From: Spirochaetia bacterium
Lineage (GTDB): Bacteria > Spirochaetota > Spirochaetia > DSM-2461
Assembly: GCA_963668315.1 (NCBI GenBank)
Contig: OY764216.1
Location: 2,848,001-2,912,000 of the forward strand
Reading direction: 5' to 3'
DNA: 64,000 bases
Part shown: positions 7,353 to 60,889 of the stretch, piece after piece
Position numbering within the stretch: position 1 is the first letter of the stretch
Layout of the letters: each line of letters begins with the position of its first letter
Notes under the pieces: model-generated
Told to the model about the DNA's origin: nothing
Database searches by the model: none
The model's input: the letters and a program-made list of their open reading frames with translations, nothing else
Program-made: the position numbers and the translations under genes

Positions 7353-7440
7353 GTCTATTGAAGCAATGGGTTATACTTGATCAGGAGCTCTATAAGCCCG
7401 ATATGATTGTATTTTGTAGGAAATAGATAATAAAAGAAGT

Positions 7441-10410: not shown

Positions 10411-10471
10411 TCGGAACGGACTATCATTGGGGAAGATGGGGAACCATGAGGGAGCCTATCTTTCGACTAAT

Positions 10472-42530: not shown

Positions 42531-43238
42531 TTATTTATAGGAAAAAAAGATATCCACGTTTATGGGTACCCATTTATCTCTGTTTTTTTCCCGAAGGAGT
42601 GAAGGGCCGTGAATCTCTCTTATCAATTTTGTAGAATCATCGATGACATAGAAGACTCTGTCGATAAAAAGATTGACGATAATATTATTTGATTTCATTT
42701 CAAGAACCGTAAAGCCTTCTTTTTCGTATTCTGACCCTTCCACTTTTCTGAAATAGAAAGACGCCGTAGTGGTGAACTCCGGAACGGGAAGGGAGAAGAA
42801 AACCTTATCGCCCTGTGCCAGGTCTTCGTATCTGTCCCTTATCAGTTGCTGCTGTGTCGGTCCGAAGAGAAGATCTTCCCTGTTGTCGATAATTTTGCTT
42901 TTCTCCTCTTCCCCCCGACGGAATGTGATCTCAATCTTGTCTCCGTCCCATTCGAGCCGTGAATACTCTCCTATCTCATAAAAGACTGTGCTATGAACCC
43001 GTTTCCCCGATTCAAGGCTTTCAAGTCTCTCTTCGGCAAACAGATTCCCGTCCATGGAATAGTATTTATGGATGAAAAGGGCAGATTCCCCGTTGATAAC
43101 CGATTCGTTTTCCAGAAGGAACAGCGGTCCTTCCCCTGCCTGCCCCTGACGGAAAACCTGGGCGGTGAAGCTGTCGGTTCCCCACAGGGTGAGCGCCTGG
43201 AAAAACAGAAGGATAAAAAGCACTTCTCCTCTTTTCAT
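42531..43238 (-). CDS. Hypothetical exported protein
   Basis: Signal peptide-like N-terminus; 6 bp downstream of the DUF1295 gene. Confidence 0.7.
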   Translation of the reverse strand: MKRGEVLFILLFFQALTLWGTDSFTAQVFRQGQAGEGPLFLLENESVINGESALFIHKYYSMDGNLFAEERLESLESGKRVHSTVFYEIGEYSRLEWDGDKIEITFRRGEEEKSKIIDNREDLLFGPTQQQLIRDRYEDLAQGDKVFFSLPVPEFTTTASFYFRKVEGSEYEKEGFTVLEMKSNNIIVNLFIDRVFYVIDDSTKLIREIHGPSLLREKNRDKWVPINVDIFFSYK

Positions 43239-43244
43239 TGGGTG

Positions 43245-44030
43245 TCACTCCTTTTTGGGAAACCAGGGAACAAAGAGACTGGTTCTCTTTTTGTATTCCG
43301 AATAGCCGGGAATGCTTCCGTATTTTTTGTCCCCGCTTTTTTCCAGAAGGGGAATTCCGGAGACGAAAAGTAAAAGGAACATAATGAATAGCGGACTGAT
43401 GACCAGCCACAGGAAGGCCGGGCCCAGGAGGGAAAGCACCATGAAAAGAATGCCCCACCAGAGGAGTGTCTCTCCGAAGTAGTTGGGATGGCGGGAGTAT
43501 TTCCAGAGGCCTGTTTCAATCCAGCCCTTGTTATCCTTTCGTGATTTGAACCGGTATTTCTGAAAATCGCTCACCGCCTCTACGAGAAATCCCGCCAGCC
43601 AGACAAACAGGCCGCACAGAAAAAGGGCATTCACTTCCGTGCTTCCCGGTGCGGAGAGGATAACGGCCATGGGCATCATCACTATCCACACCGTTACCCC
43701 CTGGAGTACCCAGAAGATCATGAAACGGAGAAAATGATCCCTTTTATCATCAAAGCGGTTGTCCTTGCCCATGCTTAGTATACGCAGGAGCAGGTAAGTC
43801 CCCAGCCTGAGGGCCCAGACTATGACGGCGGCCGAAAGAATCACCCTGGGGAGATCGGGCCGGGGATTGGCCGTATTGAGGAGAACCGTAAGGAGAATGA
43901 AGGTAAAACTATAGGTGAAATCGGTAAATTTATCCGTCCTCAGCAGATAGGCAAAGGTAAAAAAGACCGCTTGAACCGTCATGCTTATAAGCAGGGATAA
44001 AAGGATGTTGTATATATCAAAGGGAAACAT
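43245..44030 (-). CDS. DUF1295 / steroid 5-alpha-reductase-like membrane protein
   Basis: [37 protein letters not shown]. Confidence 0.9.
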
Positions 44031-44099
44031 GCTAAAGCTCCTATCAAATCTGAATGTAGTGTAAATTTAATATAATATCCTCTCTATGTCAAATAAAAC

Positions 44100-44127
44100 T
44101 TGAATAAATATAACAATATGTTATAAT
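44100..44127 (+). promoter_or_regulatory. Sigma70 promoter of the lipocalin operon overlapped by a palindromic operator
   Basis: TTGAAT(44100)-16-TATAAT(44122) with extended TG; palindrome AATATAAC-AATAT-GTTATAAT at 44107-44127. Confidence 0.75.
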
Positions 44128-44182: not shown

Positions 44183-44731
44183 ATGAGAAAATTACTGTTT
44201 CCGATTATGATACTGATTTATCTTGCATCCTGCGTCAGTTACAAAGGGGATCAGCCTTTTCAGCCCATAGCGGAAAGGGTGGATATAAACCGCTTTCTGG
44301 GAGACTGGTTTGTCATTGCTTTGCTGCCCACTCCTATGGAAAAGAGTATTGCCAACGGTGTGGAGAACTACAGCCTCAGGGAAAACGGAGAGATTCGCGT
44401 TACCTATACATTCAGAAAGGGTAATACTTCAGGTAAGGAAAAGGTCATGTACCAGCGCGGTTGGATTGTTGATACCCATACCAATGCGGAGTGGAGGGTT
44501 AGACCGCTCTGGCCTCTGAAGCTTCCCTATTACATTCTGGAAGTGGGGAATGATTACGCCTATACGGTTATTGGGACCAATAACTACGATTATCTCTGGA
44601 TAATGTCCCGGGAGCCCGACCTGGAACCTCTTTTATTGGAGGGGATTATCCGGCGCATGGAAGAACGGGGTTATACAATGGATGATCTTGTTTATATGGA
44701 GCAGAACTGGGAGGGACGGGATGACCAATGA
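44183..44731 (+). CDS. blc: Lipocalin (Blc-like lipoprotein)
   Basis: Lipobox LASC; VDINRFLGDWFVIA (GxW); YLWIMSR. Confidence 0.88.
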   Translation: MRKLLFPIMILIYLASCVSYKGDQPFQPIAERVDINRFLGDWFVIALLPTPMEKSIANGVENYSLRENGEIRVTYTFRKGNTSGKEKVMYQRGWIVDTHTNAEWRVRPLWPLKLPYYILEVGNDYAYTVIGTNNYDYLWIMSREPDLEPLLLEGIIRRMEERGYTMDDLVYMEQNWEGRDDQ

Positions 44732-46529
44732 GATAAACGGTTTTCATCTCTATCAGGCTTTTCTGGCGGGTTATTTCGAAATGAAAAAGAACAGGGAGGA
44801 AATGAACCGGATAAATGTATTCCCCGTAAGGGACGGGGATACCGGTTCGAATATGGTCGGTACCATGAAGAATGTAGCCGCGGGGCTTAAATCCTGCCGT
44901 TCCGCCGGAAAGCTTCTTGAGCGGATGGCCGAACTCTCCCTGGAGGGGGCCCGGGGCAATTCGGGTATGATCCTTACCCAGTATCTGAACGGAATGGCAC
45001 GCCACGGGAGGGGGAAGTCCACCTTGAGTCTGTGCGAACTGGCGGATATTATCAACCTTTCCGTGGAGGACGCCTATAAAGCGGTGGACATGCCGAGGGA
45101 GGGAACCATCCTTTCCGTCATGACCGCCTGGGCGGAGAAATTCCATTCCCTCTGCGCCATGCACCGTTCTCCCCAATCCCTCATGGAAGTATCACTGGAG
45201 AGAGCGCGGGAGGCTCTGGAACATACACCGGAACAGCTTGATATCCTGAAGGATAACCGGGTGGTGGATGCGGGCGCCCTTGGATTTGTCTCCTTTCTGG
45301 AAGGGGTGGATAAACTGGGTGACACGGGGCTTGTTGACGGGAGCATGCGGAAAAAGATTCTGGCCGATTCGGATCGCAGCACCCTGTCCTATGGCCTCGA
45401 AGAGGGGCACGGCGGAAGCGGTAAGTTCACCTACCGGTACTGTACAGAGGTTCTTCTGGAGAAAAGCGAGGCCGACCGTGATGAGCTGAGAGCTCTTCTC
45501 TCCCCCCTGGGAGATTCGCTGATTGTAGCTGAAGGAAGTGAAAAGTTCCGGATACATATCCATACGGATGAGCCGGATAGAGTGGTGGATACCCTGCGCC
45601 GTCTGGGGAGGGTCATACAGCAGAAAGCGGATGACATGAAAAGGCAGGAGCAAGTCGTATCGGCCCGGGCGGGAAAGATAGCCGTCTTGACCGATTCCAT
45701 AGCCGATATCCCCCGGGAACTGATGGACCGGTATCAGATCCACAGTTTAAGTCTTTCCCTGATCTGGGATGATGAGGAGTATCTGGACCGGCTTACCATC
45801 AGGCCCGGTACCTTCTATGCCATGCAGGAAGAGAGATCCTCCTTTCCGGCCAGTTCCCTGCCCTCCGCTTCCCGGGTGGAGAACTATTTCGCCTTTCTGC
45901 TCGAACACTACGAGGGTGTCATCGTCCTGTCCGTCTCCAGGGAACTGAGCGGTACCTGGAAACAGATGTCTCTGGCGGCGGAAAAATTCAACCGTCAGGA
46001 GAAGCGCATCGCCGTGGTGGACACGAGGCTGAATTCCGTCGCCCAGGGGCTGCTGGTTGAGAGGGTGGCGAGGGCATCCGTTCAGGGGGCGGGGCTGGAG
46101 GAACTGATTCTGCTGGCCGAATCCCTGAGAAAGAGAATAAAGATTTTTGTCAGCGTGAAGACCTTCCGGTATATGGTGAAAGGAGGCCGAGTCACTCCCC
46201 TGAAGGGAGCGGCGGCCAAATTACTCAACCTCAAACCTATCATCACCCTGGATGAAGAGGGAAAGGGGAAAGCCTTCGATAAATCCTTTTCCTCAGGGGG
46301 ACTGATGAAAAAGGTAACGGCTCTGGTGAGGGACATTCAGGAGGGAAAGGGGATAGAAGAGTATGCCGTAGTCCATGCTTCCGACAGGGAAAGGGGAGAG
46401 ACTTTTTCCCGTCTTGTCAGGGAGGTAATCGGAAAGGAGCCATCCTATATCTCGGAAATATCCCCCATTGTGGGGATGCATTCCGGTAAAGGGGCGGTGG
46501 CCATAGGAATTGTCGAACGTGAGGAGTGA
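44721..46529 (+). CDS. DAK2 (FakA-like) - DegV (FakB-like) fusion protein
   Basis: INVFPVRDGDTGSNM, GARGNSG, EGTILSV, VVDAGA, YRYCTE, IHIHT; then DegV TDSIAD, LSGT, KGGR, LKPII, H.GKGA. Confidence 0.9.
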   Translation: MTNEINGFHLYQAFLAGYFEMKKNREEMNRINVFPVRDGDTGSNMVGTMKNVAAGLKSCRSAGKLLERMAELSLEGARGNSGMILTQYLNGMARHGRGKSTLSLCELADIINLSVEDAYKAVDMPREGTILSVMTAWAEKFHSLCAMHRSPQSLMEVSLERAREALEHTPEQLDILKDNRVVDAGALGFVSFLEGVDKLGDTGLVDGSMRKKILADSDRSTLSYGLEEGHGGSGKFTYRYCTEVLLEKSEADRDELRALLSPLGDSLIVAEGSEKFRIHIHTDEPDRVVDTLRRLGRVIQQKADDMKRQEQVVSARAGKIAVLTDSIADIPRELMDRYQIHSLSLSLIWDDEEYLDRLTIRPGTFYAMQEERSSFPASSLPSASRVENYFAFLLEHYEGVIVLSVSRELSGTWKQMSLAAEKFNRQEKRIAVVDTRLNSVAQGLLVERVARASVQGAGLEELILLAESLRKRIKIFVSVKTFRYMVKGGRVTPLKGAAAKLLNLKPIITLDEEGKGKAFDKSFSSGGLMKKVTALVRDIQEGKGIEEYAVVHASDRERGETFSRLVREVIGKEPSYISEISPIVGMHSGKGAVAIGIVEREE

Positions 46530-46530
46530 T

Positions 46531-47955
46531 ATGGACCGGGAGAGAGTCTTCTCCCTCAACCGGATTGCCGAGGAGGGCCCGGGGGATATTTACTATTGGA
46601 TGACCCGTGAGCAGCGGCTTGAGGACAACTGGGCCCTGAATTATGCCTGCCGCTGGGCGGATCTGAAAAAACGCTCCCTGAAAATCCTGTTTTTCCTGCC
46701 CCCCCGGCGGGAGGGATTCGCCGTGAAGTCCTACGATTTCATGGTTAGGGGACTGGTAAGATTGAAAGAGGAAGCCCTTCAGAAGGGATTTACCCTGTAT
46801 ATACTGCATCGTTGTGATCCGGAAGATCTCTTCAGGGAGAGGGCCGGAAGGGGAATGCTGGGAGGACTGGTCTGTGATTTCTATCCTCTGAAGGAATTCC
46901 GCGAGAAGAGGGAGAGGATCGCAGGGATATTGGATATCCCCGTACGGGAAGTGGACGGGCACAATATTGTCCCCTGCCGTTATCTATCGGATAAGCAGGA
47001 GTTCGCCGCCTATACGATCAGAAATAAAATCGCCCCCCTCCTGACGGGGTTTCTGAAAGAGATCCCCCCTCCGCAGTTTCCGGGATCTGCTGTTGCCCGG
47101 TCAGCCGATGAGGGAATGGAGACCTACTCTCCCTTCATTATGAGAACGGAGAATCTGGAGAGGCTGATTTCTTCCAAACCGATATATCCGGGCGAACCGG
47201 GCTACGGGGGAGGAATGGAGAGGCTCTACCATTTTCTGCAAAAGAAGTGGGACCTTTACGGAACGGAGCGGAATAATCCGGTAAAAGAGGCTCTTTCCGG
47301 GCTCTCCCCCTATCTTCATTTCGGTCAGATCTCCCCGCAGACCGCCGCCTTCGAGGCTGCCCGTCTGGGAGGGATCACCACGCTGAAAGGCGGCTTTCTT
47401 GACGAGATAATCGTCAGGAGGGAGCTGAGTGACAACTTCTGTTTTCATAACGCCCGCTATGACAGGGAGGAGGGATTTCCCGACTGGGCCCGGCAGACCT
47501 TGGCCAAGCATGAAGGCGATCCCAGGCCTTATCTATACAATCTCGAAGAACTGGAAGAAGGGGTCACCCATGATGATCTCTGGAACGCGGCCCAAAAGCA
47601 GATGGTTGATACGGGGAAGATGCACGGCTATATGCGTATGTACTGGGCTAAGAAAATACTGGAATGGAGCCCTTCGGCGGGAACCGCCATGGAACGGGCC
47701 GTCTATCTTAATGATAAATACTCCCTTGACGGGGAGGACCCCAACGGCTATGCCGGCTGCGCCTGGGCCATCGGGGGGCTTCATGACAGGGCCTGGCAGG
47801 AGCGGCCCGTTTTCGGGAAAATCCGCTATATGAATGAGGCGGGATGCCGGAGGAAGTTTCCGGTGAAAGACTATATAAGGGAGAATCTGGGTCATGGAAA
47901 AGAAGATACGCATAGGTATAAGCAGCTGTCTCTTGGGGAATCGGGTGCGCTATGA
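46531..47955 (+). CDS. phr: Class II CPD DNA photolyase
   Basis: YWMTREQRLEDNWAL, LSPYLHFGQIS, RRELSDNF, GKMHGYMRMYWAKKILEW, FGKIRYMN. Confidence 0.95.
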   Translation: MDRERVFSLNRIAEEGPGDIYYWMTREQRLEDNWALNYACRWADLKKRSLKILFFLPPRREGFAVKSYDFMVRGLVRLKEEALQKGFTLYILHRCDPEDLFRERAGRGMLGGLVCDFYPLKEFREKRERIAGILDIPVREVDGHNIVPCRYLSDKQEFAAYTIRNKIAPLLTGFLKEIPPPQFPGSAVARSADEGMETYSPFIMRTENLERLISSKPIYPGEPGYGGGMERLYHFLQKKWDLYGTERNNPVKEALSGLSPYLHFGQISPQTAAFEAARLGGITTLKGGFLDEIIVRRELSDNFCFHNARYDREEGFPDWARQTLAKHEGDPRPYLYNLEELEEGVTHDDLWNAAQKQMVDTGKMHGYMRMYWAKKILEWSPSAGTAMERAVYLNDKYSLDGEDPNGYAGCAWAIGGLHDRAWQERPVFGKIRYMNEAGCRRKFPVKDYIRENLGHGKEDTHRYKQLSLGESGAL

Positions 47956-48844
47956 CGGGCAGCACAAAAAAGATCCCTTTCTGACGGACGTTCTGGGGCA
48001 ATGGTGTGAATTCGTACCGGTCTGCCCCGAGGTGGAGTGCGGCCTGTCCATTCCCCGTGAGGCAATGCGTCTCGTAGGCAGCAGGGAGAAGCCGAGGCTG
48101 GTCACCTGGAAGAGCGGCGTCGATCATACGGAACGAATGGAGACGTGGTGCCGTGAGAAATGTGAATCCCTGGCTTCTGAGGATTTGGCAGCCTTTATCT
48201 TCAAGACGAAGAGTCCCTCAAGCGGATTGGGCCGGGTCAAGGTCTATAACGGGAAAGGAGACGTCATCCATAGGGACGGCCAGGGAATCTTCGCCCGGAT
48301 ATTTACAGAGACATTCCCCGATCTTCCCGTGGAGGACGAGGGGAGGCTGAACGATCCGGGCATAAGGGAGAACTTTGTGGAGACCCTCTTTGTTCTCCAG
48401 CGCTGGCGGGAGGCTCTGGCTGAGGGCACGGCCGGGGCGGTGGTGGAGTTTCACAGCCGCCATAAGTACACCTTTATGGCAAGAAATCAGAAAATCCTCA
48501 GGCAGATGGGACCGGTCATGTCCAATCTGGGGTGGGATAATTTCGCAAAGGCGAAGGAGAGCTATTACCGACTGCTTCTGGAAATCCTAAAAAGTGAAAA
48601 GGACAGAAAAAACAACTATAATGTTCTGCTCCATATGGCAGGATACTTCCGGGAGAATCTGGATCCGGAGGAGAGAAAAGAGCTGGGGCGGATTATAGAG
48701 GATTACGGCAAGGGATGGCTTCCCCTGCTTGTTCCCCTGACTCTCATCAGGCATTTCAGCCGTAAGTACGGGAGGGAGTATCTGATGGGGCAGCATTTCC
48801 TCAATCCCCATCCTCTGGAGATGAAGCTGCTCTATCCGGTTTGA
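47894..48844 (+). CDS. DUF523 + DUF1722 (YbgA family) protein
   Basis: GISSCLLGNRVRYDG, VCPEVECGL, KSPSSG, EDEGRLND, FHSRHKY, NVLLHMAGYF. Confidence 0.92.
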   Translation: MEKKIRIGISSCLLGNRVRYDGQHKKDPFLTDVLGQWCEFVPVCPEVECGLSIPREAMRLVGSREKPRLVTWKSGVDHTERMETWCREKCESLASEDLAAFIFKTKSPSSGLGRVKVYNGKGDVIHRDGQGIFARIFTETFPDLPVEDEGRLNDPGIRENFVETLFVLQRWREALAEGTAGAVVEFHSRHKYTFMARNQKILRQMGPVMSNLGWDNFAKAKESYYRLLLEILKSEKDRKNNYNVLLHMAGYFRENLDPEERKELGRIIEDYGKGWLPLLVPLTLIRHFSRKYGREYLMGQHFLNPHPLEMKLLYPV

Positions 48845-49460
48845 CCCTTTTCCATGTCTTCTCCTCCCCCCTGATTATCCGGCGGATATTGGAGCGGTGC
48901 AAGAAAAGGATGAGGAGGAAAAGGAGAGAGAGAAAAAATTCGGTCAGAAGAAAATCCTCCCGGGAGGTTATCAGATGGGCAGTAAGGTAGTAGAGAGGCA
49001 GAGTCATTCCGGCAAGGAGAGAGCCTAATGACGCGTAGCCGCTTATCAGGACTGCCAGAAGAAAGGCCGCGAGGCAGAAAGGGACCGCTCCGGGGATAAG
49101 GGCGCTGATTCCACCGGCCGTGACGGCCACACCCTTTCCTCCCTTAAATCGGGTCCAGGGGGGGAAGGAGTGTCCCAGCATGAGAAATATGATCATGACA
49201 AGAGTAAGGAGACGGGGCTCGTTCCAGCGGACGGCGGTCAGGATAGGAAGAAAACCTTTGGCAAAATCAAGGAGAAGCACAGCCCCGCCGGGCAGCTTTC
49301 CGAAATTCCGGTAGACGTTCGTCGCTCCTCCGTTTCCGCTTCCCAGGGTGTAGATGTTTTTTCCGAAGAAAATTTTCACCACGAGGAAAGCCGAAGGGAG
49401 TGAGCCGCACAGGAAGGACGCGGCCGGTAAAATCGTATAGGACAGGAATTCGGGAAACAT
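48801..49460 (-). CDS. plsY: Acyl-phosphate:glycerol-3-phosphate acyltransferase
   Basis: GSLP, GSGNGGATN, DFAKG, LGH, FKGGKGVA, HRSNIRR. Confidence 0.92.
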   Translation of the reverse strand: MFPEFLSYTILPAASFLCGSLPSAFLVVKIFFGKNIYTLGSGNGGATNVYRNFGKLPGGAVLLLDFAKGFLPILTAVRWNEPRLLTLVMIIFLMLGHSFPPWTRFKGGKGVAVTAGGISALIPGAVPFCLAAFLLAVLISGYASLGSLLAGMTLPLYYLTAHLITSREDFLLTEFFLSLLFLLILFLHRSNIRRIIRGEEKTWKRVKPDRAASSPEDGD

Positions 49461-49554: not shown

Positions 49555-49584
49555 TTGACGAGGAATATAACAAAGAGTTATATT
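49555..49584 (+). promoter_or_regulatory. Promoter of the regulator overlapped by the same palindromic operator
   Basis: TTGACG(49555)-18-TATATT(49579); perfect palindrome AATATAAC-AAAGA-GTTATATT at 49564-49584. Confidence 0.78.
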
Positions 49585-49590
49585 TTATTT

Positions 49591-50463
49591 GTGGATAGAA
49601 AACAGTTCGGAGAGAAAATCCGTTATTTTCGAAAGCAGAAGGGGCTGACACAGGGACAGCTTGCCGAGATGATCGGCGTTTCCCAGGTGACGATTGCCCA
49701 TTATGAGAGGGGAAACAGGTTTCCCAAGGGGACAAAACTGGCCCTGCTGGCATCGGTTCTGAATGTGTCAGTCGATTCCCTGATGGGCCTTGAGGTAAAG
49801 GAAGAGGCGGAAAGCCAGGGCCTTTATTCCATTGATGAGCTGATAGAGCTCCTCCACTCCGATTCGATGGAACGAAGCTGGGTTTACCTGAGACACTGGC
49901 AGCTGTCGAGGAAATACGACAGCATGGGGGTTTTCCGGGATATTCTCATTCCCCTCCTTGAGCGGGTGGGCGACCTCTGGCAGGAGAAAAAGATATACAT
50001 CTCCCAGGAGCATATCATTACCGATAAGGTCAAGCTGCTTATAGACAGGCTGGTAAGGGAGGAGATGGAGGAAAAGCATATTCTTCCCGACAGGGAGAGA
50101 AAATGGATGGGACTGTGTGCTCCCGGTGAGCAGCATGAGCTTGTGCTTTTCATGATAAGCCAGCTTATGAGACTGAGCGGCTGGGATGTCAATTATCTGG
50201 GAAAGGATATACCGCTGAACGATTTGAAGAAGATGGTCAGGCGTTACAAACCGGATATCCTGGTTTTTTCCATTACCATGAAAAACCATGGTAAGATACT
50301 GAAAGAGTATCTGGAGGGACTGTCGGTGTTCTTGAAGAGGTCACGCATTATTGTAGGGGGACGAGGCTGGATCGGCGGTACCGGAGAAGGACCTTCTGCC
50401 GAGGCGGAATATGTCGATAGCCTGGATCAATACTTTTCTCTGATAGGGGAAGGAAAGAAATAG
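49591..50463 (+). CDS. XRE-HTH plus cobalamin-binding-domain transcriptional regulator (CarH-like sensor)
   Basis: GLTQGQLAEMIGVSQVTIAHYERG HTH; W-x9-EH; EQH..V-x41-SIT-x26-GG; GTG 49591 preferred to TTG 49555. Confidence 0.88.
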   Translation: MDRKQFGEKIRYFRKQKGLTQGQLAEMIGVSQVTIAHYERGNRFPKGTKLALLASVLNVSVDSLMGLEVKEEAESQGLYSIDELIELLHSDSMERSWVYLRHWQLSRKYDSMGVFRDILIPLLERVGDLWQEKKIYISQEHIITDKVKLLIDRLVREEMEEKHILPDRERKWMGLCAPGEQHELVLFMISQLMRLSGWDVNYLGKDIPLNDLKKMVRRYKPDILVFSITMKNHGKILKEYLEGLSVFLKRSRIIVGGRGWIGGTGEGPSAEAEYVDSLDQYFSLIGEGKK

Positions 50464-50472
50464 GAGTTTATT

Positions 50473-51567
50473 ATGAATCTACCGGGGAAGTTGTACATAC
50501 CAATAGTATGTGTCTTGCTGACGGGAATGTTTGTTTCCTGCGGGGAGGAGTCCGACCAGGTGACCAGCGCCAGTTATCACGGGGACGGTACAGAAGAACC
50601 CCGGCCGGTGGAAGCCGTAGAGCTTCATAGGGATAAGCTGATAAAGCGGGTTAGCGGATCGGGTATCATCCGGGGACGTGACGAGGTGTGGAGTACCTCG
50701 GAGACCCAGGGGACGATTGTGGAAGTCTATGTCTCCCCGGGCGATTATGTCAGCAAAGGGGATCCCCTTATTAAAGTGGAGGACAACCTGGCTTACTGGG
50801 AGATGAAAAGGGCGGAACAGCAGTTTAAAACCTCCGATTTCGAGTACCGGGGCAAAAAGAACTCCTTTGAGAACGGCGCCGTATCGGAAATCGAATACAA
50901 CCGGTCCTATGCTTCCTGGTTTTCCAGCCGGGCCGCCTATGAAACCGCTCTGCAGGCCTATGAAAACTGCACTCTCCGTGCTCCTATCTCCGGCCATGTC
51001 TCCCAGATGGATACGACGCTGACGGCGGGGAACATTCTGAACCGGGGGACTCCGGTCATGAAGATCATCAATACCGATGAGTTTCTCCTCAATATAGCCC
51101 TGGGACAGAGGGAAGTCGGCCTGGTCACCCTGGATTCTCCTGTCGCTGTCACTATTGAGCTGGCGGATACGGTTCTGCGGGCCGAAGGAAGGGTTCTGGA
51201 CATCTCCACCGGAAGCGACGGGGAAACGGGCAGTTTTCCCTTAAGGGTCGTCTGGAAAAACGAGTGGGACAGCCTGGTCAGACCGGGAATGACCGCCCGG
51301 GTGGAACTGCAGGCCGAAAGGGGGGAGGAAGGCATAATCATCCCCTATGACAGCATTCTGGAGAGGGACGGTAAGAAATGGGTTTTCGTCGCCCTTGCGG
51401 AAGATAATGGGGTAAAAGCCTATCCCCGGGAGATACAGCCGGGCAGCAGGCTGGGAAACAGGATACGCATTGATGAAGGCCTGGAAGAGGGGGAATCCCT
51501 TATCATTTCGGCTCTGACGACCCTCTACCCGGGGGCTCCCGTTGAGCTGAGCTACCTGAACGAGTAG
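50473..51567 (+). CDS. RND efflux periplasmic adaptor (MFP) lipoprotein
   Basis: Lipobox FVSC; GDYVSKGDPL, LRAPISG, RPGMTA, GLEEGE. Confidence 0.9.
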   Translation: MNLPGKLYIPIVCVLLTGMFVSCGEESDQVTSASYHGDGTEEPRPVEAVELHRDKLIKRVSGSGIIRGRDEVWSTSETQGTIVEVYVSPGDYVSKGDPLIKVEDNLAYWEMKRAEQQFKTSDFEYRGKKNSFENGAVSEIEYNRSYASWFSSRAAYETALQAYENCTLRAPISGHVSQMDTTLTAGNILNRGTPVMKIINTDEFLLNIALGQREVGLVTLDSPVAVTIELADTVLRAEGRVLDISTGSDGETGSFPLRVVWKNEWDSLVRPGMTARVELQAERGEEGIIIPYDSILERDGKKWVFVALAEDNGVKAYPREIQPGSRLGNRIRIDEGLEEGESLIISALTTLYPGAPVELSYLNE

Positions 51568-51576
51568 GACACGCAT

Positions 51577-54500
51577 ATGAGTATCTCAAAGTTTTCCGTA
51601 AATAATCAGGTTTTTCTGAATATATTGATGATCGCCCTTCTGGTGTTCGGATTTTTTTCCGCCGGCAGGATGCCCCGCGAGCAGTATGATGAGGTTCCCT
51701 TCTATTTCGTGAACATCACCGTTCCCTATCCGGGGGCGGGCGCGGAGGATGTGGAAAGGCAGGTCACCATACCCATAGAAAATGAAATGCAGTCCCTCGA
51801 TGAACTTAAGGAGGTCTCCTCCCTGTCGTCGGAGGGGCTCTCCTTTGTTCAGATTCAGTTTGACGACGGGATTTCGGCGGCGAAATTCGATAAGCTTTTC
51901 AGCGATGTGAGAACGGCTTTTTCCAAGGCTTCCCTGCCCGACGGCGTCCAGGAGGAACTTATCGATGACTTCTCCTCCACCGATTTCATTCCCGTGGCGG
52001 AAGTCGTTCTTTCCGGTGATGTGGACTACGCCCGGCTCATCCGTACGGCGGAGCAGATGGAATCGGATATCAGAGCGATTCCCGATGTCTCCGGTGTCGA
52101 GATAGTCGGAGCCCGGGATAAGCAGATTGCCGTTGAACTGGACAAAGCGGCGGCGGAAGCGCGGGGCATTACTCTGGAAGAGGTCGCCCGGGCCATCCGG
52201 GGGGCCAATATGACCGTTCCCGGGGGAACCTTCGTCACCGATGAGGGGGAGTATCTTATCAGGACGACAGGAAGCATTGAGGGAATAGAATCGCTCGGGG
52301 ATATTATCGTGAGAAGGGGCAACGGGAACGGCGGCATCCTGCGGGTGGATCAGGTGGCCCGAGTGAAGGAGCGGTTTGATCCGGAGGGGACAAAGGCCCG
52401 CTTCAATGGAAAGACATCCCTTGTCCTGCGTATTACCAAAGTGCCCGGCGGGGACGGGGTGGGTATCATCGACGGGGTTAAATCCCTCATGGACGAGTAC
52501 CGGGAACAGACCGGCCGCCAGATATCCATCACCCTGGTCAACGATTCCACCATACAGATACGAAACAGTTTGAATGTCCTTCGCAATAATGTCCTCATAG
52601 GGCTGCTTCTTCTCGTGGGAATCCTCTTTCTATTCGTGGGAATCAGAAACAGTCTGATGACGGCTCTGGGTATCCCGGTTACCTTTGCGGCTACCTTCAT
52701 CGTGCTGGAAATCTTCGGGGAGACATTCAATACCAATACACTTTTCGGCCTGGTTTTAGTCCTGGGACTCGTGGTGGATCACGCCATCGTCATTATAGAA
52801 AACGGCTACCGCATGCAGGAGCTGGGACTCAGCCCAAGGGAGGCGGCCGTGAAGGGGACCTCCCAGGTGGCCGTACCGGTTATCGCCGCCACGGCTACGA
52901 CGGTCGCCGCCTTTCTTCCCCTTATGATACTGCCCGGGACAATAGGTAAATTCCTGCGGGTCATTCCTTTTACCGTTTCCATCGCCCTCCTGCTCTCAAC
53001 CGGGGAAGCCCTGCTGTTTATTCCCGCCCATTTCGCCCACTGGCCGGGAAACCGGAAAAGGAGGAATGATTCGGTTCGGTGGATCAGGTTCCGGGACTTT
53101 TTCGGCCGGATTCTCGAAAAACTGTACGGGAAAAAAGGGCTGACCGTATCTATCATTCTGCTGCTTATGGTGCTGAGTTTTACCCTCGTCCCCCTCCTGG
53201 AAACAGATCTGTTTTCCGCCGAGGACTATACGGTTTTTTATATCGATGTGGAGATGGCCCCCGGAACGACGCAGGAGAGAACGGAACAGGTCCTGAGCCG
53301 CTTTGAAGAGAGACTCCTTCCCCTGGTGGGGAACGGGGAGATTACCTCCCTTTCCCTCTCAATAGGATTTCTCGGCAGCGACAGCGGCAGCCGCGTCAGA
53401 AATAATGTGGGTCAGCTGACCGTGGACCTGGCGGAACGGGAGGAGGGGAGAACCCGTTCCATTACGGATATCATGGAGGATGTCCGGACTCTTACGGGGG
53501 ATATCCCCGGGCCGGAGTATGTGGAATACCGGAAGGCGACAAACGGTCCCCCCTCCGATGCCCCGGTGGCCTTCCGTCTCTTCGGAAACAGCCGGGAGGA
53601 ACTGGTGCAGGCTTCTGAGAGACTCCAGGAGGAGCTGAGAACATTTCCCGAACTGTTCAGTATCCGCGATGATTACGAACCGGGTACGCCGGAACTGCAG
53701 ATCACCGTGGACAAGGAGCGGGCCGCTTCATACGGTATGACGCCCCTCACGGTCGGTTTAGCCGTTCAGGAGGCTCTGGAGGGCTACGGGGCCGGTTCCT
53801 ACTTTAAGGACAACGAAGAGATCGATGTGGTGGTATATTACGAAGGGGCCGGTTCGGGAGCCCTGGAAGATCTTCTCCAGCTCTATCTCATTACCCCGCG
53901 GGGTGACAGGATCCCCTTTTCGGCTCTCTGCCGGATAGAGCCGAAATCATCCCCTTCGGCCATAAGCCGTGTCGACGGGAAAAGACAGATTCAGGTAACG
54001 AGCGAAGCCTATGACACGGAGAACCTGCCTGTCATCGACCGGGCCGTACAGCGGGTCTTCGACGAGGAGATCGCCCCCCGGTTTCCCGATGTGACGCTGA
54101 AGCTGGGGGGAGAGTTCTCCGAATTCGGCGACCTTCTCATTCAGATACTGCGTATCTTCCTTATCGGGATTTTTCTCATCTACATCATTCTGGCATCCCA
54201 GTTCAACTCCTATACCCAGCCTCTTATCATCCTCTTTTCCGTACCGCTGGCCTTCATGGGGGTCATTCTGTTCCTGGTCCTTTCGGGAAATCCCTTTTCC
54301 ACCACCGTTATCTACGCAGGGGTGGCCCTGGCCGGCATTGCCGTGAACGATTCCATTGTACTTATAAGCTTCATCAATGAGGAGAGAAGCGAGGGCAGGG
54401 GGATTTCCGAATCTGTGAAGGAGGCGGTTCTGACAAGGCTGAGGCCCATTCTTCTCACTTCCCTGACGACGATTGGGGGGCTCCTTCCCACGGCGGTAGG

Positions 54501-54672
54501 CCTGGGGGGCAAGTCCGTTGTCTGGGGCCCCATGGCGGGTACCATCGTCTTCGGACTCCTCTTTTCGACTCTTACGGCCCTGCTTTTCATTCCCTGCCTC
54601 TACGGGTTTCTTTATGACAGGAAGAAAGGGGCTGGAGCGGCCCTTTCTGATGGGGGAGAAGATAAACGCTGA
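51577..54672 (+). CDS. RND efflux permease (AcrB/AcrD/AcrF family)
   Basis: YPGAGAEDVE, GLVVDHAIV, AVNDSIVL, RLRPILLTSLTT; 1031 aa. Confidence 0.95.
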   Translation: MSISKFSVNNQVFLNILMIALLVFGFFSAGRMPREQYDEVPFYFVNITVPYPGAGAEDVERQVTIPIENEMQSLDELKEVSSLSSEGLSFVQIQFDDGISAAKFDKLFSDVRTAFSKASLPDGVQEELIDDFSSTDFIPVAEVVLSGDVDYARLIRTAEQMESDIRAIPDVSGVEIVGARDKQIAVELDKAAAEARGITLEEVARAIRGANMTVPGGTFVTDEGEYLIRTTGSIEGIESLGDIIVRRGNGNGGILRVDQVARVKERFDPEGTKARFNGKTSLVLRITKVPGGDGVGIIDGVKSLMDEYREQTGRQISITLVNDSTIQIRNSLNVLRNNVLIGLLLLVGILFLFVGIRNSLMTALGIPVTFAATFIVLEIFGETFNTNTLFGLVLVLGLVVDHAIVIIENGYRMQELGLSPREAAVKGTSQVAVPVIAATATTVAAFLPLMILPGTIGKFLRVIPFTVSIALLLSTGEALLFIPAHFAHWPGNRKRRNDSVRWIRFRDFFGRILEKLYGKKGLTVSIILLLMVLSFTLVPLLETDLFSAEDYTVFYIDVEMAPGTTQERTEQVLSRFEERLLPLVGNGEITSLSLSIGFLGSDSGSRVRNNVGQLTVDLAEREEGRTRSITDIMEDVRTLTGDIPGPEYVEYRKATNGPPSDAPVAFRLFGNSREELVQASERLQEELRTFPELFSIRDDYEPGTPELQITVDKERAASYGMTPLTVGLAVQEALEGYGAGSYFKDNEEIDVVVYYEGAGSGALEDLLQLYLITPRGDRIPFSALCRIEPKSSPSAISRVDGKRQIQVTSEAYDTENLPVIDRAVQRVFDEEIAPRFPDVTLKLGGEFSEFGDLLIQILRIFLIGIFLIYIILASQFNSYTQPLIILFSVPLAFMGVILFLVLSGNPFSTTVIYAGVALAGIAVNDSIVLISFINEERSEGRGISESVKEAVLTRLRPILLTSLTTIGGLLPTAVGLGGKSVVWGPMAGTIVFGLLFSTLTALLFIPCLYGFLYDRKKGAGAALSDGGEDKR

Positions 54673-56706: not shown

Positions 56707-57351
56707 TTAAAGTAGTTCTTCCCCCCGGGATTGGAGGGCCTTTTTTTCGGCCTGATTAACCATGAAGAAAAGATTTTCAATTTCTAGACCGATATTCACA
56801 TTATGGATACGGCAGCCCTCTTTGCTCTTCAGTTGAAGGGGGGCGAAATTCAGTATTCCCTTTATGCCGCAGTTCACCATCATCTCCATGGTCTGCATGG
56901 CGGCAGAGTAGGGTACGGCTATGATTCCCACATCAATATGATGTTCGAGAACGTAGGGTTTGAGAATCTCCAGGGGGTAAAGGGGAATATTATTCATTTC
57001 TGCCTGGGGCGGATTAATATCAAAACCGGCGGCGATACGGAAGCCTTCCCTTATATAATCATGATTGATAAGGGCCTTACCCAGATTTCCGCATCCCACG
57101 ATGACGATCTCCTGGAGGCCCGAATCCCCGAGGAGGTGGTTCAGTTTGTCCAGCACACGGTTGATGCTGTAACCTCCTCTTCTGTTTCCCTCAATCTTGA
57201 AATGGGAGAAATCCTTCCTGACAAGGGCGGCGGAAATCTCAAGAGCGTCCCCCAGGTTATTTGAATAGACCCTGTCCAGGCCGAGTGATTTAAACTGAAG
57301 AAGTATCCTTTTGTACTTCATAAGCCGAAGCATCAGGTCCTTTTGTTCCAT
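56707..57351 (-). CDS. rex: Redox-sensing transcriptional repressor Rex
   Basis: VRKDFSHF..G...GY winged helix; VGCGNLGKAL Rossmann fold; GILNFAP. Confidence 0.93.
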   Translation of the reverse strand: MEQKDLMLRLMKYKRILLQFKSLGLDRVYSNNLGDALEISAALVRKDFSHFKIEGNRRGGYSINRVLDKLNHLLGDSGLQEIVIVGCGNLGKALINHDYIREGFRIAAGFDINPPQAEMNNIPLYPLEILKPYVLEHHIDVGIIAVPYSAAMQTMEMMVNCGIKGILNFAPLQLKSKEGCRIHNVNIGLEIENLFFMVNQAEKKALQSRGEELL

Positions 57352-57374
57352 CAGATGATATCCTTATTTTAATA

Positions 57375-57392
57375 TTGTGAAATATAGTACAT
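57375..57392. promoter_or_regulatory. Weak Rex operator candidate near the rex start
   Basis: TTGTGAA-ATAT-AGTACAT versus TTGTGAA-N4-TTCACAA. Confidence 0.45.
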
Positions 57393-57487
57393 TAAAAGGC
57401 AAATAATATCAATAAGTTGTAATTTAATGTAAGTAACAACTAAGTATATTAGGTATAAAGTTGACCTATGTAATTTTGGCTGTTTTG

Positions 57488-57505
57488 TTGTGAAATAAGT
57501 AACAA
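57488..57505. promoter_or_regulatory. Rex operator candidate
   Basis: TTGTGAA-ATAA-GTAACAA (12 of 14 consensus positions). Confidence 0.7.
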
Positions 57506-57641
57506 TATAAAACATAACCGTATCAATAAGGCTAAAGTTTTAACGATTTTCCTTGCGCAGTAAAGGTAAAGTACCGTAAAATATCGTTGACTTTATACAA
57601 TATTAGTCAAAAACAAGATCACTATATGTTAGGGAGGTCCT

Positions 57642-58130
57642 ATGGCAGTAGCTGAAGCGGAAGAGCTTAAAATGTCCGATGAACTTTTGGCTTTCATCGG
57701 TGAATGGAAAGTCAAACCGGGTAACCTTATTATGATTCTTCATCGTGTCCAGGAGGAATTTGGTTATATTCCCCGTCCGGTGGCAATCGAATTAAGCCGT
57801 ATGCTGGAAGTGCCGTTGGCAAAAATTTATGGAGTTATCACCTTTTATCATTTTTTCAAACTGGTGAAGCCGGGTAAGCATAAGCTTCAGGTTTGTATGG
57901 GCACCGCCTGTTACCTGAGGGGAGGCGACGATCTGATTGCCGAGCTGGAGACCATGCTGGGAATCGGTGTTAACGAAACGACCGAGGACGGTCTCTTTTC
58001 CCTGGAAGCTGTACGCTGTGTCGGCTGCTGCGGTCTTGCTCCCGTTGTGGTTTGCGGTTCCGATGTTTATGGAAAGCTGACCACCGATCAGCTGGCGGAA
58101 ATCGTGGCAAAATACAGGAACGCCGAGTAG
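57642..58130 (+). CDS. hndA: [FeFe]-hydrogenase NuoE-like 2Fe-2S subunit (HndA/HydC)
   Basis: VCMGTACYLRG, RCVGCCGLAP. Confidence 0.88.
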   Translation: MAVAEAEELKMSDELLAFIGEWKVKPGNLIMILHRVQEEFGYIPRPVAIELSRMLEVPLAKIYGVITFYHFFKLVKPGKHKLQVCMGTACYLRGGDDLIAELETMLGIGVNETTEDGLFSLEAVRCVGCCGLAPVVVCGSDVYGKLTTDQLAEIVAKYRNAE

Positions 58131-58673
58131 ATGCACTTTGCCGTCTGCGACTATATCCTGGATATGGTTCAGAATTCCATTGAAGCCGGAGCGGACAGAA
58201 TTGAACTTATTCTGGCCGAAAGGTACAACGGATTGACGCTGAACCTCAGGGACAACGGTTGCGGCATGACGGAAGAAGAACTGAAAAAAGCAAAAGATCC
58301 CTTTTATACTGACGGTGTTAAGCATAAGGCCCGGAAAGTCGGGCTAGGTATACCTTTTCTTATTCAGATGGCCGAATCCACAGAGGGGCGATTTGATATA
58401 GAATCAAAGAAGAACGGAGGAACGGAAGTATCCGTTTTCTTCAATACGTCCCATATCGATACTCCCCCTGTCGGGGACCTGGTATCGCTGTTCTTACAGG
58501 CCATGACTTTCGACGGCTCCTATGAGCTGATTATCAGAAGGGTTTTCCCGTCTGGAGGCAGAGAGAGTTATGAGTTGGTCAGAAGCCAGCTCAGCGAGAT
58601 CCTGGGTGATCTGAACCGGGCAGGCAATATGGCGCTGCTCAGGGATTTTATCGCATCCCAGGAAAATGAATAG
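58131..58673 (+). CDS. Stand-alone histidine-kinase-like ATPase (HATPase_c)
   Basis: QNSIEAGA, DNGCGM, DPFYT, VGLGIP. Confidence 0.85.
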   Translation: MHFAVCDYILDMVQNSIEAGADRIELILAERYNGLTLNLRDNGCGMTEEELKKAKDPFYTDGVKHKARKVGLGIPFLIQMAESTEGRFDIESKKNGGTEVSVFFNTSHIDTPPVGDLVSLFLQAMTFDGSYELIIRRVFPSGGRESYELVRSQLSEILGDLNRAGNMALLRDFIASQENE

Positions 58674-58694
58674 AAGACGAACAAGGAGACAATA

Positions 58695-59084
58695 ATGGCT
58701 AAGATGACCCTTGAAGAACTCCGTAAACTTCGCTCCGGCGAAAAACAGGCCCTCAGCAACAGAGATATAGAGGGCAAGGAAGTTCAGGTTATAATTGGTA
58801 TGGGAACCTGCGGAATCGCCGCCGGCGCCAAGGATACCATGGACAGCTTTGTTAACTGCATCAACAGTAACGGGCTTCAGAACGTGACCATCAGACAGAC
58901 AGGCTGCATGGGACTCTGTTACGCCGAACCTACGGTGGAAATCAAGATGGCCGGCATGGCCGACACGATTTACGGCAACGTCAATGCCGAAGTGGCCAAG
59001 GAGATCGTGGAAAATCATATTCTGCACAAGAGGCTGGTTGATAAGCACGTTTTCGATAAACCCGCCGCCGATATCACACAGTAG
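58695..59084 (+). CDS. hndB: Thioredoxin-like 2Fe-2S ferredoxin subunit (HndB/HydD)
   Basis: GMGTCGIAAGA, TGCMGLCYAEP. Confidence 0.85.
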   Translation: MAKMTLEELRKLRSGEKQALSNRDIEGKEVQVIIGMGTCGIAAGAKDTMDSFVNCINSNGLQNVTIRQTGCMGLCYAEPTVEIKMAGMADTIYGNVNAEVAKEIVENHILHKRLVDKHVFDKPAADITQ

Positions 59085-59095
59085 GAGACGAGAAA

Positions 59096-60889
59096 ATGGC
59101 TATTAAAACTTATGTAATGGTCTGCGGCGGAACGGGGTGCGAATCCTCCCGCGCGGACGACATATACAAAAACCTCCATAAGGAGGCGGAACTGCAGGGC
59201 GTCAGCGATGACGTTCAGATCGTTAAAACCGGTTGTTTCGGTTTCTGCGAGCAGGGACCCATTGTTAAAGTTCTTCCCAATGACCATTTCTATGTACAGG
59301 TCGTTCCCGAAGATGCCAAGGAGATTATCGCCGAGGATATTCTGAAGGGCAGGGCGGTCAAGCGTCTTCTCTATAAAGAAGAGAACATGACCGAAATGAA
59401 GAACAACGAAGGGGAAGACATCAAGTTCTACCAGAAACAGCTTCGTATCGTTCTGCGGAACTGCGGTCTCATCAATCCCGAAAATGTGAATGAGTATATC
59501 GCCAGAGACGGTTACCTGGCTCTGGAAAAGGTCCTTTTCGAAATGAGTCCCGACGATATCATCGAAGAGTTGAAGAAATCCGGGCTGAGAGGACGGGGCG
59601 GTGCCGGCTTCCCCACGTGGATGAAGTGGAACTTCTCCAAGCAGGTCGACAACGATGTCAAATATGTCGCCTGTAACGCCGACGAGGGCGACCCCGGCGC
59701 CTACATGGACCGCTCCGTACTGGAAGGGGATCCCCACTCCGTACTGGAAGCCATGACCATTGCCGGTAAGTGTATCGGCGCCAATCTGGGTATCATCTAT
59801 ATCCGCGCCGAGTATCCCCTGGCCATCAACCGTCTGAAAACCGCCATGGGCCAGGCCCGTGATCTGGGACTTCTCGGCAAGGACATCCTCGGTTCGGGAT
59901 TCGATTTCGATATCGAACTCAGACTGGGAGCGGGAGCTTTCGTCTGCGGTGAAGAGACAGCCCTCCTTCAGTCCGTTGAAGGAAACAGGGGTATGCCCAT
60001 TCCCAAGCCTCCCTTTCCCGCCGTGGAAGGTCTCTGGCAGAAACCCACCGTTATCAACAACGTGGAAACCTACGCCAACATACCCGTAATCATCAGCAAG
60101 GGCGGCGACTGGTTCGCCCAGTTCGGTACGGAAAAATCCAAGGGAACCAAGGTGTTTGCCCTGACCGGCAAGGTTCAGAACTCCGGCCTTGTGGAAGTGC
60201 CCATGGGATCCACCCTGCGGGATATCATCTTCGATATCGGCGGCGGCATCAGGAACGGCAAAAAGTTCAAGGCCGTTCAGACCGGCGGACCCTCCGGCGG
60301 TGTTATCACCGAGGACATGCTGGATATGCCCCTGGACTTCGACAGCCTCCTCTCCATCGGTTCCATGATGGGTTCCGGCGGTATGATCGTTATGGACGAG
60401 GACGACTGTATCGTGGACGTGGCCCGTTTCTACATGGACTTCTGCGTGGAAGAGTCCTGCGGAAAGTGTTCGCCCTGCCGGATCGGTACCAGAAAGCTTC
60501 TCGACTACCTGGAAAAAATCACTAAGGGCAAAGGGCAGATGGAAGATCTGGAGAACATGGAGAGAATCGGCAAGCATATGCATAAGTCGGCTCTCTGTAT
60601 GCTCGGCGGTTCGGCCGCCAACCCCATCCTTTCCACCCTGAAAGCCTTCCGCGAAGAGTACGTGGAACACATCCAGGAGGGCAAGTGCCGCGCCGGTAAA
60701 TGCAAGGCTCTCGTTCATTACGAGATTCTTTCCGACAAGTGTATCGGCTGTACCGTCTGCGCCAGAAAGTGTCCCGTCAACTGTATCACGGGAGAGAAGA
60801 AGAAGCCCCATGAGATTGATCAGTCAGCCTGTATCAAGTGCGGTCAGTGTTACGAAGGTTGTAAGTTCAACGCCATTGTCATTAAGTAA
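59096..60889 (+). CDS. hndC: NuoF-like flavin subunit of [FeFe]-hydrogenase (HndC/HydB)
   Basis: GLRGRGGAGFP, NADEGDPGAYMDR, GGPSGG, ESCGKCSPCR, two C-terminal 4Fe-4S motifs. Confidence 0.93.
   Translation: MAIKTYVMVCGGTGCESSRADDIYKNLHKEAELQGVSDDVQIVKTGCFGFCEQGPIVKVLPNDHFYVQVVPEDAKEIIAEDILKGRAVKRLLYKEENMTEMKNNEGEDIKFYQKQLRIVLRNCGLINPENVNEYIARDGYLALEKVLFEMSPDDIIEELKKSGLRGRGGAGFPTWMKWNFSKQVDNDVKYVACNADEGDPGAYMDRSVLEGDPHSVLEAMTIAGKCIGANLGIIYIRAEYPLAINRLKTAMGQARDLGLLGKDILGSGFDFDIELRLGAGAFVCGEETALLQSVEGNRGMPIPKPPFPAVEGLWQKPTVINNVETYANIPVIISKGGDWFAQFGTEKSKGTKVFALTGKVQNSGLVEVPMGSTLRDIIFDIGGGIRNGKKFKAVQTGGPSGGVITEDMLDMPLDFDSLLSIGSMMGSGGMIVMDEDDCIVDVARFYMDFCVEESCGKCSPCRIGTRKLLDYLEKITKGKGQMEDLENMERIGKHMHKSALCMLGGSAANPILSTLKAFREEYVEHIQEGKCRAGKCKALVHYEILSDKCIGCTVCARKCPVNCITGEKKKPHEIDQSACIKCGQCYEGCKFNAIVIK

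Follow-up and report, generated by a model that had tools for sequence, protein, structure and literature searches.

A probable cobalamin-dependent, light-released repressor with a Cro/C1-type head on a CarH-type module in a Spirochaetia genome

In a stretch of 64,000 nucleotides from a Spirochaetia bacterium (contig OY764216.1 of assembly GCA_963668315.1; hereafter the window), a gene was found for a regulator in which a Cro/C1-type (XRE) DNA-binding head is fused to a CarH-type cobalamin module, and this protein is probably an AdoCbl-dependent repressor that is released by light. The family to which it belongs is real, conserved and apparently uncharacterised, and what is new is the XRE head on a CarH-type module together with a predicted operator, a predicted regulon and a predicted specificity residue. 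The features of the locus are collected in Table 1.

Table 1. Regulator locus and predicted targets (positions counted from the first letter of the window).
Feature	Position	Strand	Remarks
DUF1295 gene (43245-44030) and 235-aa gene (42531-43238)	42531..44030	-	divergent, conserved neighbours
Promoter of the lipocalin operon, TTGAAT-16-TATAAT, extended -10	44100-44127		encloses predicted operator 2
Predicted operator 2 (ATATAAC-AATAT-GTTATAA)	44108..44126	.	top-scoring site of the genome (matrix)
Lipocalin (Blc-like)	44183..44731	+	first gene of the predicted target operon
Dak2/FakA-DegV/FakB fusion, fatty-acid-kinase-like	44682..46529	+	likely start near 44721
Class II-type CPD photolyase	46510..47955	+	PF00875; TIGR00591 510 bits, cut-off 550
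RudS-type protein (2-thiouracil desulfurase domain and DUF1722)	47894..48844	+	Pfam
PlsY-type acyltransferase	48801..49460	-	divergent from the regulator, conserved neighbour
Regulator promoter, sigma70-type TTGACG-18-TATATT	49555..49584	+	ends 6 nt before GTG; no Shine-Dalgarno, leaderless-type
Predicted operator 1	49564..49584	.	perfect 8-5-8 inverted repeat AATATAAC-AAAGA-GTTATATT; between -35 and over -10 of the regulator's promoter
XRE-B12 regulator gene	49591..50463	+	290 aa, GTG start; Pfam, AlphaFold2, Foldseek
Cro/C1-type (XRE, HTH_3) DNA-binding domain	49618..49779	+	residues 10-63
Four-helix cap (B12-binding_2) with G127xxW130-x9-E140H141	49915..50052	+	
Rossmann B12-binding domain	50107..50361	+	G179xxH182, V185 replacing Gly, G204xxxP208, S227, G256-G257
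RND efflux pair: membrane-fusion protein, AcrB-type transporter	50473-51567, 51577-54672	+	9-nt gaps

Three Pfam domains of the regulator scored above the curated cut-offs, namely HTH_3 (10-63, E 5e-16), B12-binding_2 (109-154) and B12-binding (173-257). HTH_3 and HTH_31 were matched by the head and the MerR domain was not, which bears out the claim of an earlier note, made from the letters alone, that the head is of XRE type and not the MerR type of CarH. The relatives of the head by PDB sequence are the P22 c2, SinR and 434 repressors, and the conserved palindrome of the predicted operator may be a site for a dimer, the way in which XRE (Cro/C1) repressors bind. The recognition region reads Q32-V33-T-I-A-H-Y-E-R-G-N-R-F-P45, and Q21, A36, Y38, E39, R43 and P45 of the XRE domain are invariant in all 103 aligned fusions. 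For residues 108-278 the nearest PDB relatives by sequence were CarH of Thermus thermophilus (TtCarH) and, second, CtMerR (E ~4e-11). The AlphaFold2 model, run on a 27-row alignment, had a mean pLDDT of 88.9 with a low-confidence linker (residues 69-77), and its top Foldseek matches were all TtCarH chains (best 5c8d, E 6e-14); against CarH domain chains the TM-score was 0.76-0.80, the rmsd 3.4-3.9 Å and E ~1e-12, a comparison different from the SignatureFinder fold criterion of 2 Å on homology models (PMC11796333). A homodimer prediction run without cofactor scored 0.22 against a mark of 0.42 and was counted neither way. The in-frame alternative start TTG at 49555 (302 aa) was rejected, as the recorded protein has 290 aa and the orthologue starts share the GTG register. 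The database label 'methanogenic corrinoid protein MtbC1' was likewise rejected and is hereby corrected for XRE-B12 fusions: TIGR02370 scored 31 of 215 bits and MtaC 25 of 420, and the HTH and Wx9EH are present, both of which the MtaC, MtbC and MetH methyl carriers lack.

The cap motif (G127-D-L-W130-x9-E140-H141) and the Rossmann motif (E180-Q-H182-E-L-V185, 41 residues, S227-I-T, 26 residues, G256-G257) were located in the translation. The earlier note had listed an XRE HTH followed by W-x9-EH and E-Q-H-E-L-V-x41-SIT-x26-GG, and the translation, the Pfam matches and the motif positions agree with it exactly. All four elements of the SignatureFinder signature (PMC11796333), namely G127xxW130, E140H141, G179xxH182 and G204xxxP208, are in the regulator, and since the whole published signature is carried, a light-sensing role is an expected prediction and not a surprise. 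Wx9EH together with the B12 motif is also the published mark of AdoCbl photoreceptors as against CarA (PMC9304148).

CarH and class I LitR (T. thermophilus, 5C8D and 5C8A; Myxococcus xanthus; Bacillus megaterium) share with the regulator the Wx9EH four-helix cap and the lower axial His of the Rossmann domain, for which H182 is predicted. Both have an N-terminal DNA-binding domain, joined in the model of the regulator by a linker of low confidence (69-77), and they would also be alike in an operator over the promoter and in photoprotective targets. The head of CarH, however, is a MerR winged helix (RxWERRY) and its operator is made of tandem 11-bp direct repeats (TnnACA) (PMC9304148), whereas the regulator has an XRE head and its conserved element is a 17-bp palindrome. 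The CarH motif D/ExHx2G/Px41SxT/Vx22-27GG (PMC9304148) is matched at E180, H182, the spacing of 41, SIT, the spacing of 26 and GG, with Val at the G/P position. Against the NCBIfam CarH equivalog the regulator scored 63 bits (cut-off 400), with residues 107-279 only being matched. The dimer salt bridge R176-D201 of TtCarH (PMC8221060) is only half kept, with Gln181 and Asp206 in the regulator (Asp in 22/103 fusions), and the oligomer interface therefore probably differs from that of TtCarH; the equivalent of TtCarH G192 (residue from PMC8221060) is kept in 97/103 fusions.

TtCarH has His132 after the cap Trp and forms a bis-His light state, which is not universal, and the regulator has Gln131 at this place. 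The H132A variant of TtCarH fails to monomerise, and O2 is required for TtCarH to respond in full (PMC10442372). CtMerR of Chloracidobacterium thermophilum (8JBS, 8JBT), a proven AdoCbl green-light switch with the elements GxxW, EH, GxxH and GxxxP and, as the regulator, no His132, has Arg after the Trp and goes from tetramer to monomer without His132 (PMC11796333); it is described as a MerR-family protein, whereas the regulator is XRE. The photocobilins SasPcob and AbDPcob (8J2W-8J2Y) have this B12 module for light sensing in proteins that are not of MerR type, and SasPcob has Gln after the Trp, as the regulator (PMC11796333), so that CtMerR and SasPcob are both proven photoreceptors without His after the Trp; the photocobilins, in contrast, carry a biliverdin-binding globin, control enzymes and have no XRE domain. 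PpaA/AerR and the SCHIC domain of AppA are homologous B12-type modules in which light or redox regulation is done via a partner repressor, whereas the regulator has its own DNA-binding domain.

A profile search yielded about 90 full-length fusions, which together with the genome loci made up the 103 aligned. G127, W130, E140, H182 and G204 are invariant (103/103) and H141 is kept in 102/103. A further set, with little overlap with the first, was made up of the 150 top-ranking representatives at 50% identity: 126 were full-length fusions (the other 24, multi-HTH or module-only, were set aside), and GxxW-x9-EH was present in 121 of the 126; the family is larger than counted, since the figures rest on the best 150 representatives. 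The architecture, which the earlier note had called distinct, is so in having XRE fused to a CarH-type cap, and with this many fusions it is not a one-off. ESM Atlas clusters with the same Pfam set had 125, 154 and 69 members, mostly Bacillota where the host is known. Homologues close in sequence to the regulator are labelled Spirochaetales, and the named hosts are spirochaetes and Bacillota, including Oceanispirochaeta, Thiospirochaeta, Thermohalobacter, Alkaliphilus and Fusibacter, all of which we take to be anaerobes. Among 61 related genomes, 22 were matched and 19 had a full fusion (G047, G054 and G055, with module-only matches, are left out of the carrier count); within the family of the window's genome the count was 16/37. 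In a phylum-wide sample of 300 other genomes (E 1e-40), a weak one since no genome had more than 7 candidates scored, no clear full-length fusion and three partial module matches were found. No published description of an XRE-B12 fusion regulator was found in the literature search, to which subscription papers were out of reach, nor in the accessible parts of PMC8156234, PMC8717448, PMC9304148, PMC9758184, PMC10734443, PMC3532121, PMC8123684, PMC8516407 and PMC10979010. SignatureFinder gives 1561 signature-bearing sequences and mentions HTH fusions of unspecified type; 'XRE' and 'Cro' do not occur in the text of its supplement, and its network figures, which lie outside a text search, may list the architecture (PMC11796333).

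In a quick tree of the B12 module, a branch with SH-aLRT 94 set apart the 34 members with Val33 in the recognition helix, and one with 95 set apart seven MerR-type proteins. MerR-type proteins were found in 5/61 genomes, two of which are carriers, and once one adjoined the XRE type: in genome G026 (L033) a MerR-type CarH-like gene (6845-7759) and an XRE-type gene (9606-10544) are two genes apart, with fasciclin and RudS near, so that both heads occur in one cluster. A 361-aa protein with an N-terminal extension (L048:9730-10815), read as photoglobin-type, adjoins a histidine kinase and shares the Wx9EH B12 module, which the tree places with those of the Thr33 members.

The two deviations from CarH to which the earlier note had pointed, Gly to Val in ExHxxG (V185) and the missing His after the Trp (Gln131), are real and neither is distinctive. 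Position 185 is Gly in 66/103, Val in 19 and Ala in 9, and His after the cap Trp is absent from all 103 aligned fusions (and present in 1/126 representatives), just as CtMerR and SasPcob do without it; both are therefore family or clade traits. Val185 may narrow the pocket for the nucleotide tail. The replaced Gly is also what speaks for a quite unlikely explanation, by which the module of the Val185 clade has become independent of AdoCbl, like those of CarA and class II LitR, or has a different tetrapyrrole as its ligand, with repression lifted by a partner protein or other ligand: the residue is Val, Ala, Ile or Pro in 29/34 members of the Val33 clade, the published motif permits only G or P (PMC9304148), and CarA and class II LitR are cases of lost B12 dependence (PMC9304148, PMC9758184). 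CarA, however, is without the Trp and class II LitR without the Rossmann B12 motif (same sources), and the regulator keeps both; among members without Gly185, 36/37 retain all eight core pocket residues (G127, W130, E140, H141, H182, G204, S227 and G257), Gly-bearing members are nested inside the Val33 clade, and the loci examined showed no conserved gene for a partner sensor next to that of the regulator.

The predicted operator was read from promoter sequences. The exact 17-bp core TATAAC-N5-GTTATA occurs twice in the 5,624,497 bases of the genome, at 44109 and in the regulator promoter, both copies being in promoters less than 5.5 kb from the gene; hexamer counts predict 0.19 copies, and with other spacings the number is 0-2 (spacing 4 also 2), so that position and not copy number is the evidence. 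With a matrix made from orthologue promoters only, 44108, which is outside the training set, ranked first and 49565 second in 5.6 Mb. The 19-mer was found within 2 mismatches at the same register in 8/23 orthologues (0.04 in shuffles) and the 17-mer within 2 mismatches in 13/18 Val33 promoters (0.4 in shuffles), where 15/16 listed sites are within 2 nt of one register and the regulator start is 7-9 nt 3' of the site. An orthologous site outside the training set is at the lipocalin promoter of L001 (position 32), and others, likewise outside it, are before the downstream gene in L003-L006, at the divergent promoters of seven loci (as second sites, 40 nt upstream) and, in two copies, before an 83-aa gene in L038 and L042. 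The motif counts omit L006 (near-duplicate of L005), and 9/80 loci were omitted from the upstream analysis (L117, short flank, no start or identical upstream region). A degenerate pattern count in 61 genomes gave no enrichment over the reversed control. A Shine-Dalgarno word was found in none of the 18 Val33 promoters over the stretch tested (L041 has GAGG abutting the start), whereas 7/7 neighbouring genes of the window have one, which supports a leaderless-type arrangement; both this and the autoregulation proposed in the earlier note, the latter from the palindrome lying across the regulator's own promoter, have support at the level of sequence.

Residue 33 of the recognition helix tracks the palindrome type. 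Val33 members preferred TATAAC-N5-GTTATA in 17/18 cases, and Thr33 members preferred TAACAC-N5-GTGTTA in 46/70 (TATAAC type 10, tie 14), with 15 Thr33 promoters within 2 mismatches of the latter against 0.16 in shuffles. This match supports that the palindrome belongs to the protein, as support and not as an independent statistical test, because the consensus came from the same sequences, the -10 is overlapped and there is one clade split; part of the conservation of the right half-site is promoter conservation, as that half overlaps the -10 element.

Some other sites were looked at. The 83-aa ORF at L038:6251-6502 (+) and L042 ~9880-10130 (-) is conserved, has no Pfam match and has two operator-like sites 61 nt apart upstream (G020, G032); its homologue in the window's genome (G000:C1:2301806-2301988) has no operator-like site upstream. 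At 56707-60889 of the window, a Rex-type regulator is divergent from a gene cluster that looks to be for a bifurcating hydrogenase or an NADH dehydrogenase, and the weak matrix match of 11.7 bits at 57404 is more likely a Rex site. Further matrix matches, for example at a prophage-type repressor promoter (G000 3390305), are unsupported.

Predicted operator 2 precedes four overlapping genes, for the lipocalin, the Dak2-DegV fusion, the photolyase and the RudS-type protein, respectively. RudS removes UVA-sensitive s4U from tRNA and has been reported in LitR/photolyase light operons (PMC11417400), and the presence of photolyase and RudS in the predicted target operon strengthens the light reading beyond the earlier note. 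The RND pair is likely co-transcribed with the regulator, as judged from the short gaps, and RND genes were near 6/19 Val33-clade loci and 4/5 genome loci. The -35 of the divergent DUF1295 gene is at 44092, outside predicted operator 2, and regulation of the DUF1295 pair by this site in the window's genome is uncertain. The 235-aa protein of that pair is predicted to be exported, has no Pfam or NCBIfam match and is kept beside the regulator in 6/19 Val33-clade loci.

Marker genes within 6 kb of the regulator were counted for 24 loci from genomes and 79 from metagenomes (the 80 top-ranking out of 187 matches, less L117, in which no regulator ORF was called). The markers were chosen after inspection of the neighbours, many loci are close kin and no control set of unrelated regulators was counted, and with these limits strict light markers (photolyase, RudS, crtI, crtB, lycopene cyclase, crtW-like, pyrimidine-dimer glycosylase) were found at 18/45 metagenome loci of at least 5 kb, and strict or accessory ones (mevalonate enzymes, crtE, fasciclin, SOD, tocopherol-cyclase-like, lipocalin, DUF1295) at 28/45. 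One family member is inside a crtI cluster (L046). In the Val33 clade a strict light marker was within 6 kb at only 4/19 loci, and the frequent neighbours were DegV-Dak2 (11), PlsY (9), lipocalin (8), DUF1295 (7) and RND (6). PF00875 photolyase was detected in 8/19 carriers and 9/42 non-carriers among the 61 relatives (absent from 11/19 carriers), and within family f1 in 5/16 carriers and 1/21 non-carriers.

This prevalence of lipid genes in Val33-clade neighbourhoods, with no photolyase detected in 11/19 carriers, would also suit a rather unlikely explanation, in which cobalamin and the same palindrome are used and the signal at work in the anaerobic hosts is oxygen, oxidative damage of the Co-C bond or AdoCbl supply, light being at most one input (as in a gate for light and oxygen) and the regulon a membrane-lipid stress module. 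Other members have genes of the SOD, fasciclin and tocopherol-cyclase-like kinds at their sides, in TtCarH the light response is itself tied to O2 (PMC10442372), and the AppA and PpaA/AerR modules sense redox through haem or cobalamin (PMC10734443). Against it, Wx9EH is published as the adenosyl cap and a mark of photoreception (PMC8156234, PMC9304148), and photolyase, RudS, crtI and crtB recur beside the family. The one lead to B12 supply, a site before metE, was rejected as a target: it is the third-best site of the genome (17.0 bits), a score at the level of chance, since in 20 permutations of the matrix columns 0-2 sites of this strength turned up per genome, and none above 6.8 bits was found upstream of metE in the seven other genomes, two of which are carriers. 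A long AT-rich inverted repeat with 13-bp arms, unrelated to the studied operator, is upstream of metE (G000:C1:4620790-4620822, L051), and Rfam gave 0 matches in the window and the metE region.

With regard to cobalamin, the CobA/BtuR adenosyltransferase is present in the window's genome and no match was found there for CobS or PduO-type genes, so that AdoCbl would depend on uptake. A receptor gene, TonB-type by its sequence, is behind a cobalamin-riboswitch match of 30.4 bits, just under the gathering score of 31.5. CobA was found in 16/19 carriers and 21/42 non-carriers and was not seen in 3/19 carriers. The genome has two further B12-binding_2 proteins, of which the first is as long as MetH and the second resembles MtaC; MerR-type CarH and phytoene synthase were not found in it.

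For the preferred reading, that of an AdoCbl-dependent repressor released by light, AdoCbl binding is suggested by W-x9-EH and His182, repression by the overlap of the predicted operator with the -10 and the spacer, symmetric binding by the palindrome and the XRE precedent, and light as the signal by the target genes and the CarH precedent. The CobA/BtuR gene, the TonB-type receptor gene and the lack of a detected MerR-type CarH in the genome also speak for it. Against it speak the 11/19 carriers in which no photolyase was detected, the few Val33-clade loci with a strict light marker, the half-kept salt bridge, Val185 with its possible effect on the pocket, the behaviour of TtCarH H132A and the O2 requirement of TtCarH in view of the anaerobic hosts, and the failure to find CobS or PduO-type genes. 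In the dark, AdoCbl would be bound His-on at H182, capped by W130, E140 and H141, and would hold an oligomer; with two-fold symmetry the latter would present two XRE helices to TATAAC-N5-GTTATA and block RNA polymerase at the regulator's own promoter and at that of the lipocalin-FakAB-photolyase-RudS genes. Light would break the cobalt-carbon bond, the cap would shift, the oligomer would loosen and the operon would be expressed. As the Trp is not followed by His, the repressor would come off as CtMerR does, with water-ligated cobalamin and a Glu of the EH pair that reorients, rather than through the bis-His state of TtCarH. The cell would gain DNA photorepair, loss of the UVA-sensitive s4U from its tRNA, and repair or export of membrane lipids.

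The opposite polarity, in which it is the photolysed form or the apoprotein that binds DNA, or the regulator activates divergent promoters while repressing itself, is highly improbable. XRE proteins can activate, as those of the lambda cI type do, and at seven loci (L031, L032, L033, L035, L036, L039 and L041) the divergent promoters have a second site, 40 nt upstream. In the window's genome, however, each of the two sites extends over the spacer and the -10 of the promoter it faces, a geometry of repression, and light is when photolyase and RudS are needed, in keeping with repression in the dark.

In the papers surveyed, every characterised B12 photoreceptor that binds DNA has a head of MerR type, and the hosts are aerobes or a phototroph. 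If the preferred reading is true, an XRE head, a short palindrome and anaerobic hosts would mean the same chromophore pocket with a different DNA-binding geometry, and a standing question becomes testable, that of how a B12 switch releases DNA without His132 and perhaps without O2. The regulon also hints at functions for DegV-Dak2 fusions, DUF1295 and several unnamed genes, and the two operator types are a candidate orthogonal pair for green-light control. A wider reading is possible, though doubtful, namely that of a B12 photoswitch of anaerobes with more than 100 50%-identity clusters in spirochaetes and Clostridia, in which XRE stands for MerR, residue 33 sets the 17-bp palindrome, His132 and possibly oxygen are dispensed with, and the Val33 clade provides carotenoid-free membrane protection; as part of that reading, the carotenoid-free route would consist of the fatty-acid kinase fusion, PlsY/PlsC-like acyltransferases, DUF1295, lipocalin and RND export. 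If true, the family would offer a small repressor controlled by green light that comes with two operator specificities from nature and could be put to use in anaerobic hosts.

Several loci of relatives have gene contents of their own. The regulator is inside mevalonate clusters on high-GC metagenome contigs in L090, L102, L107, L108, L123 and L099 (HMG-CoA synthase, GHMP kinases and an FMN_dh-family gene read as type 2 IDI). In L003 (2457-3344), L004 (10978-11946), L005 and L006, a gene of 295-303 aa with its own predicted operator follows the regulator, and its ESM Atlas neighbours are acetoacetate-decarboxylase-like (PF06314) clusters. A 1450-aa BcrAD/BadFG and DUF2229 protein, with the architecture of the anaerobic plasmalogen synthase PlsA, is encoded downstream of the regulator locus at L004:14503-18861 and L006:12749-17086. 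Divergent from the regulator, L124 (4974-5624) and L129 (5126-5794) have stand-alone B12-binding proteins with EH and without the GxxW cap, each a possible partner or antirepressor.
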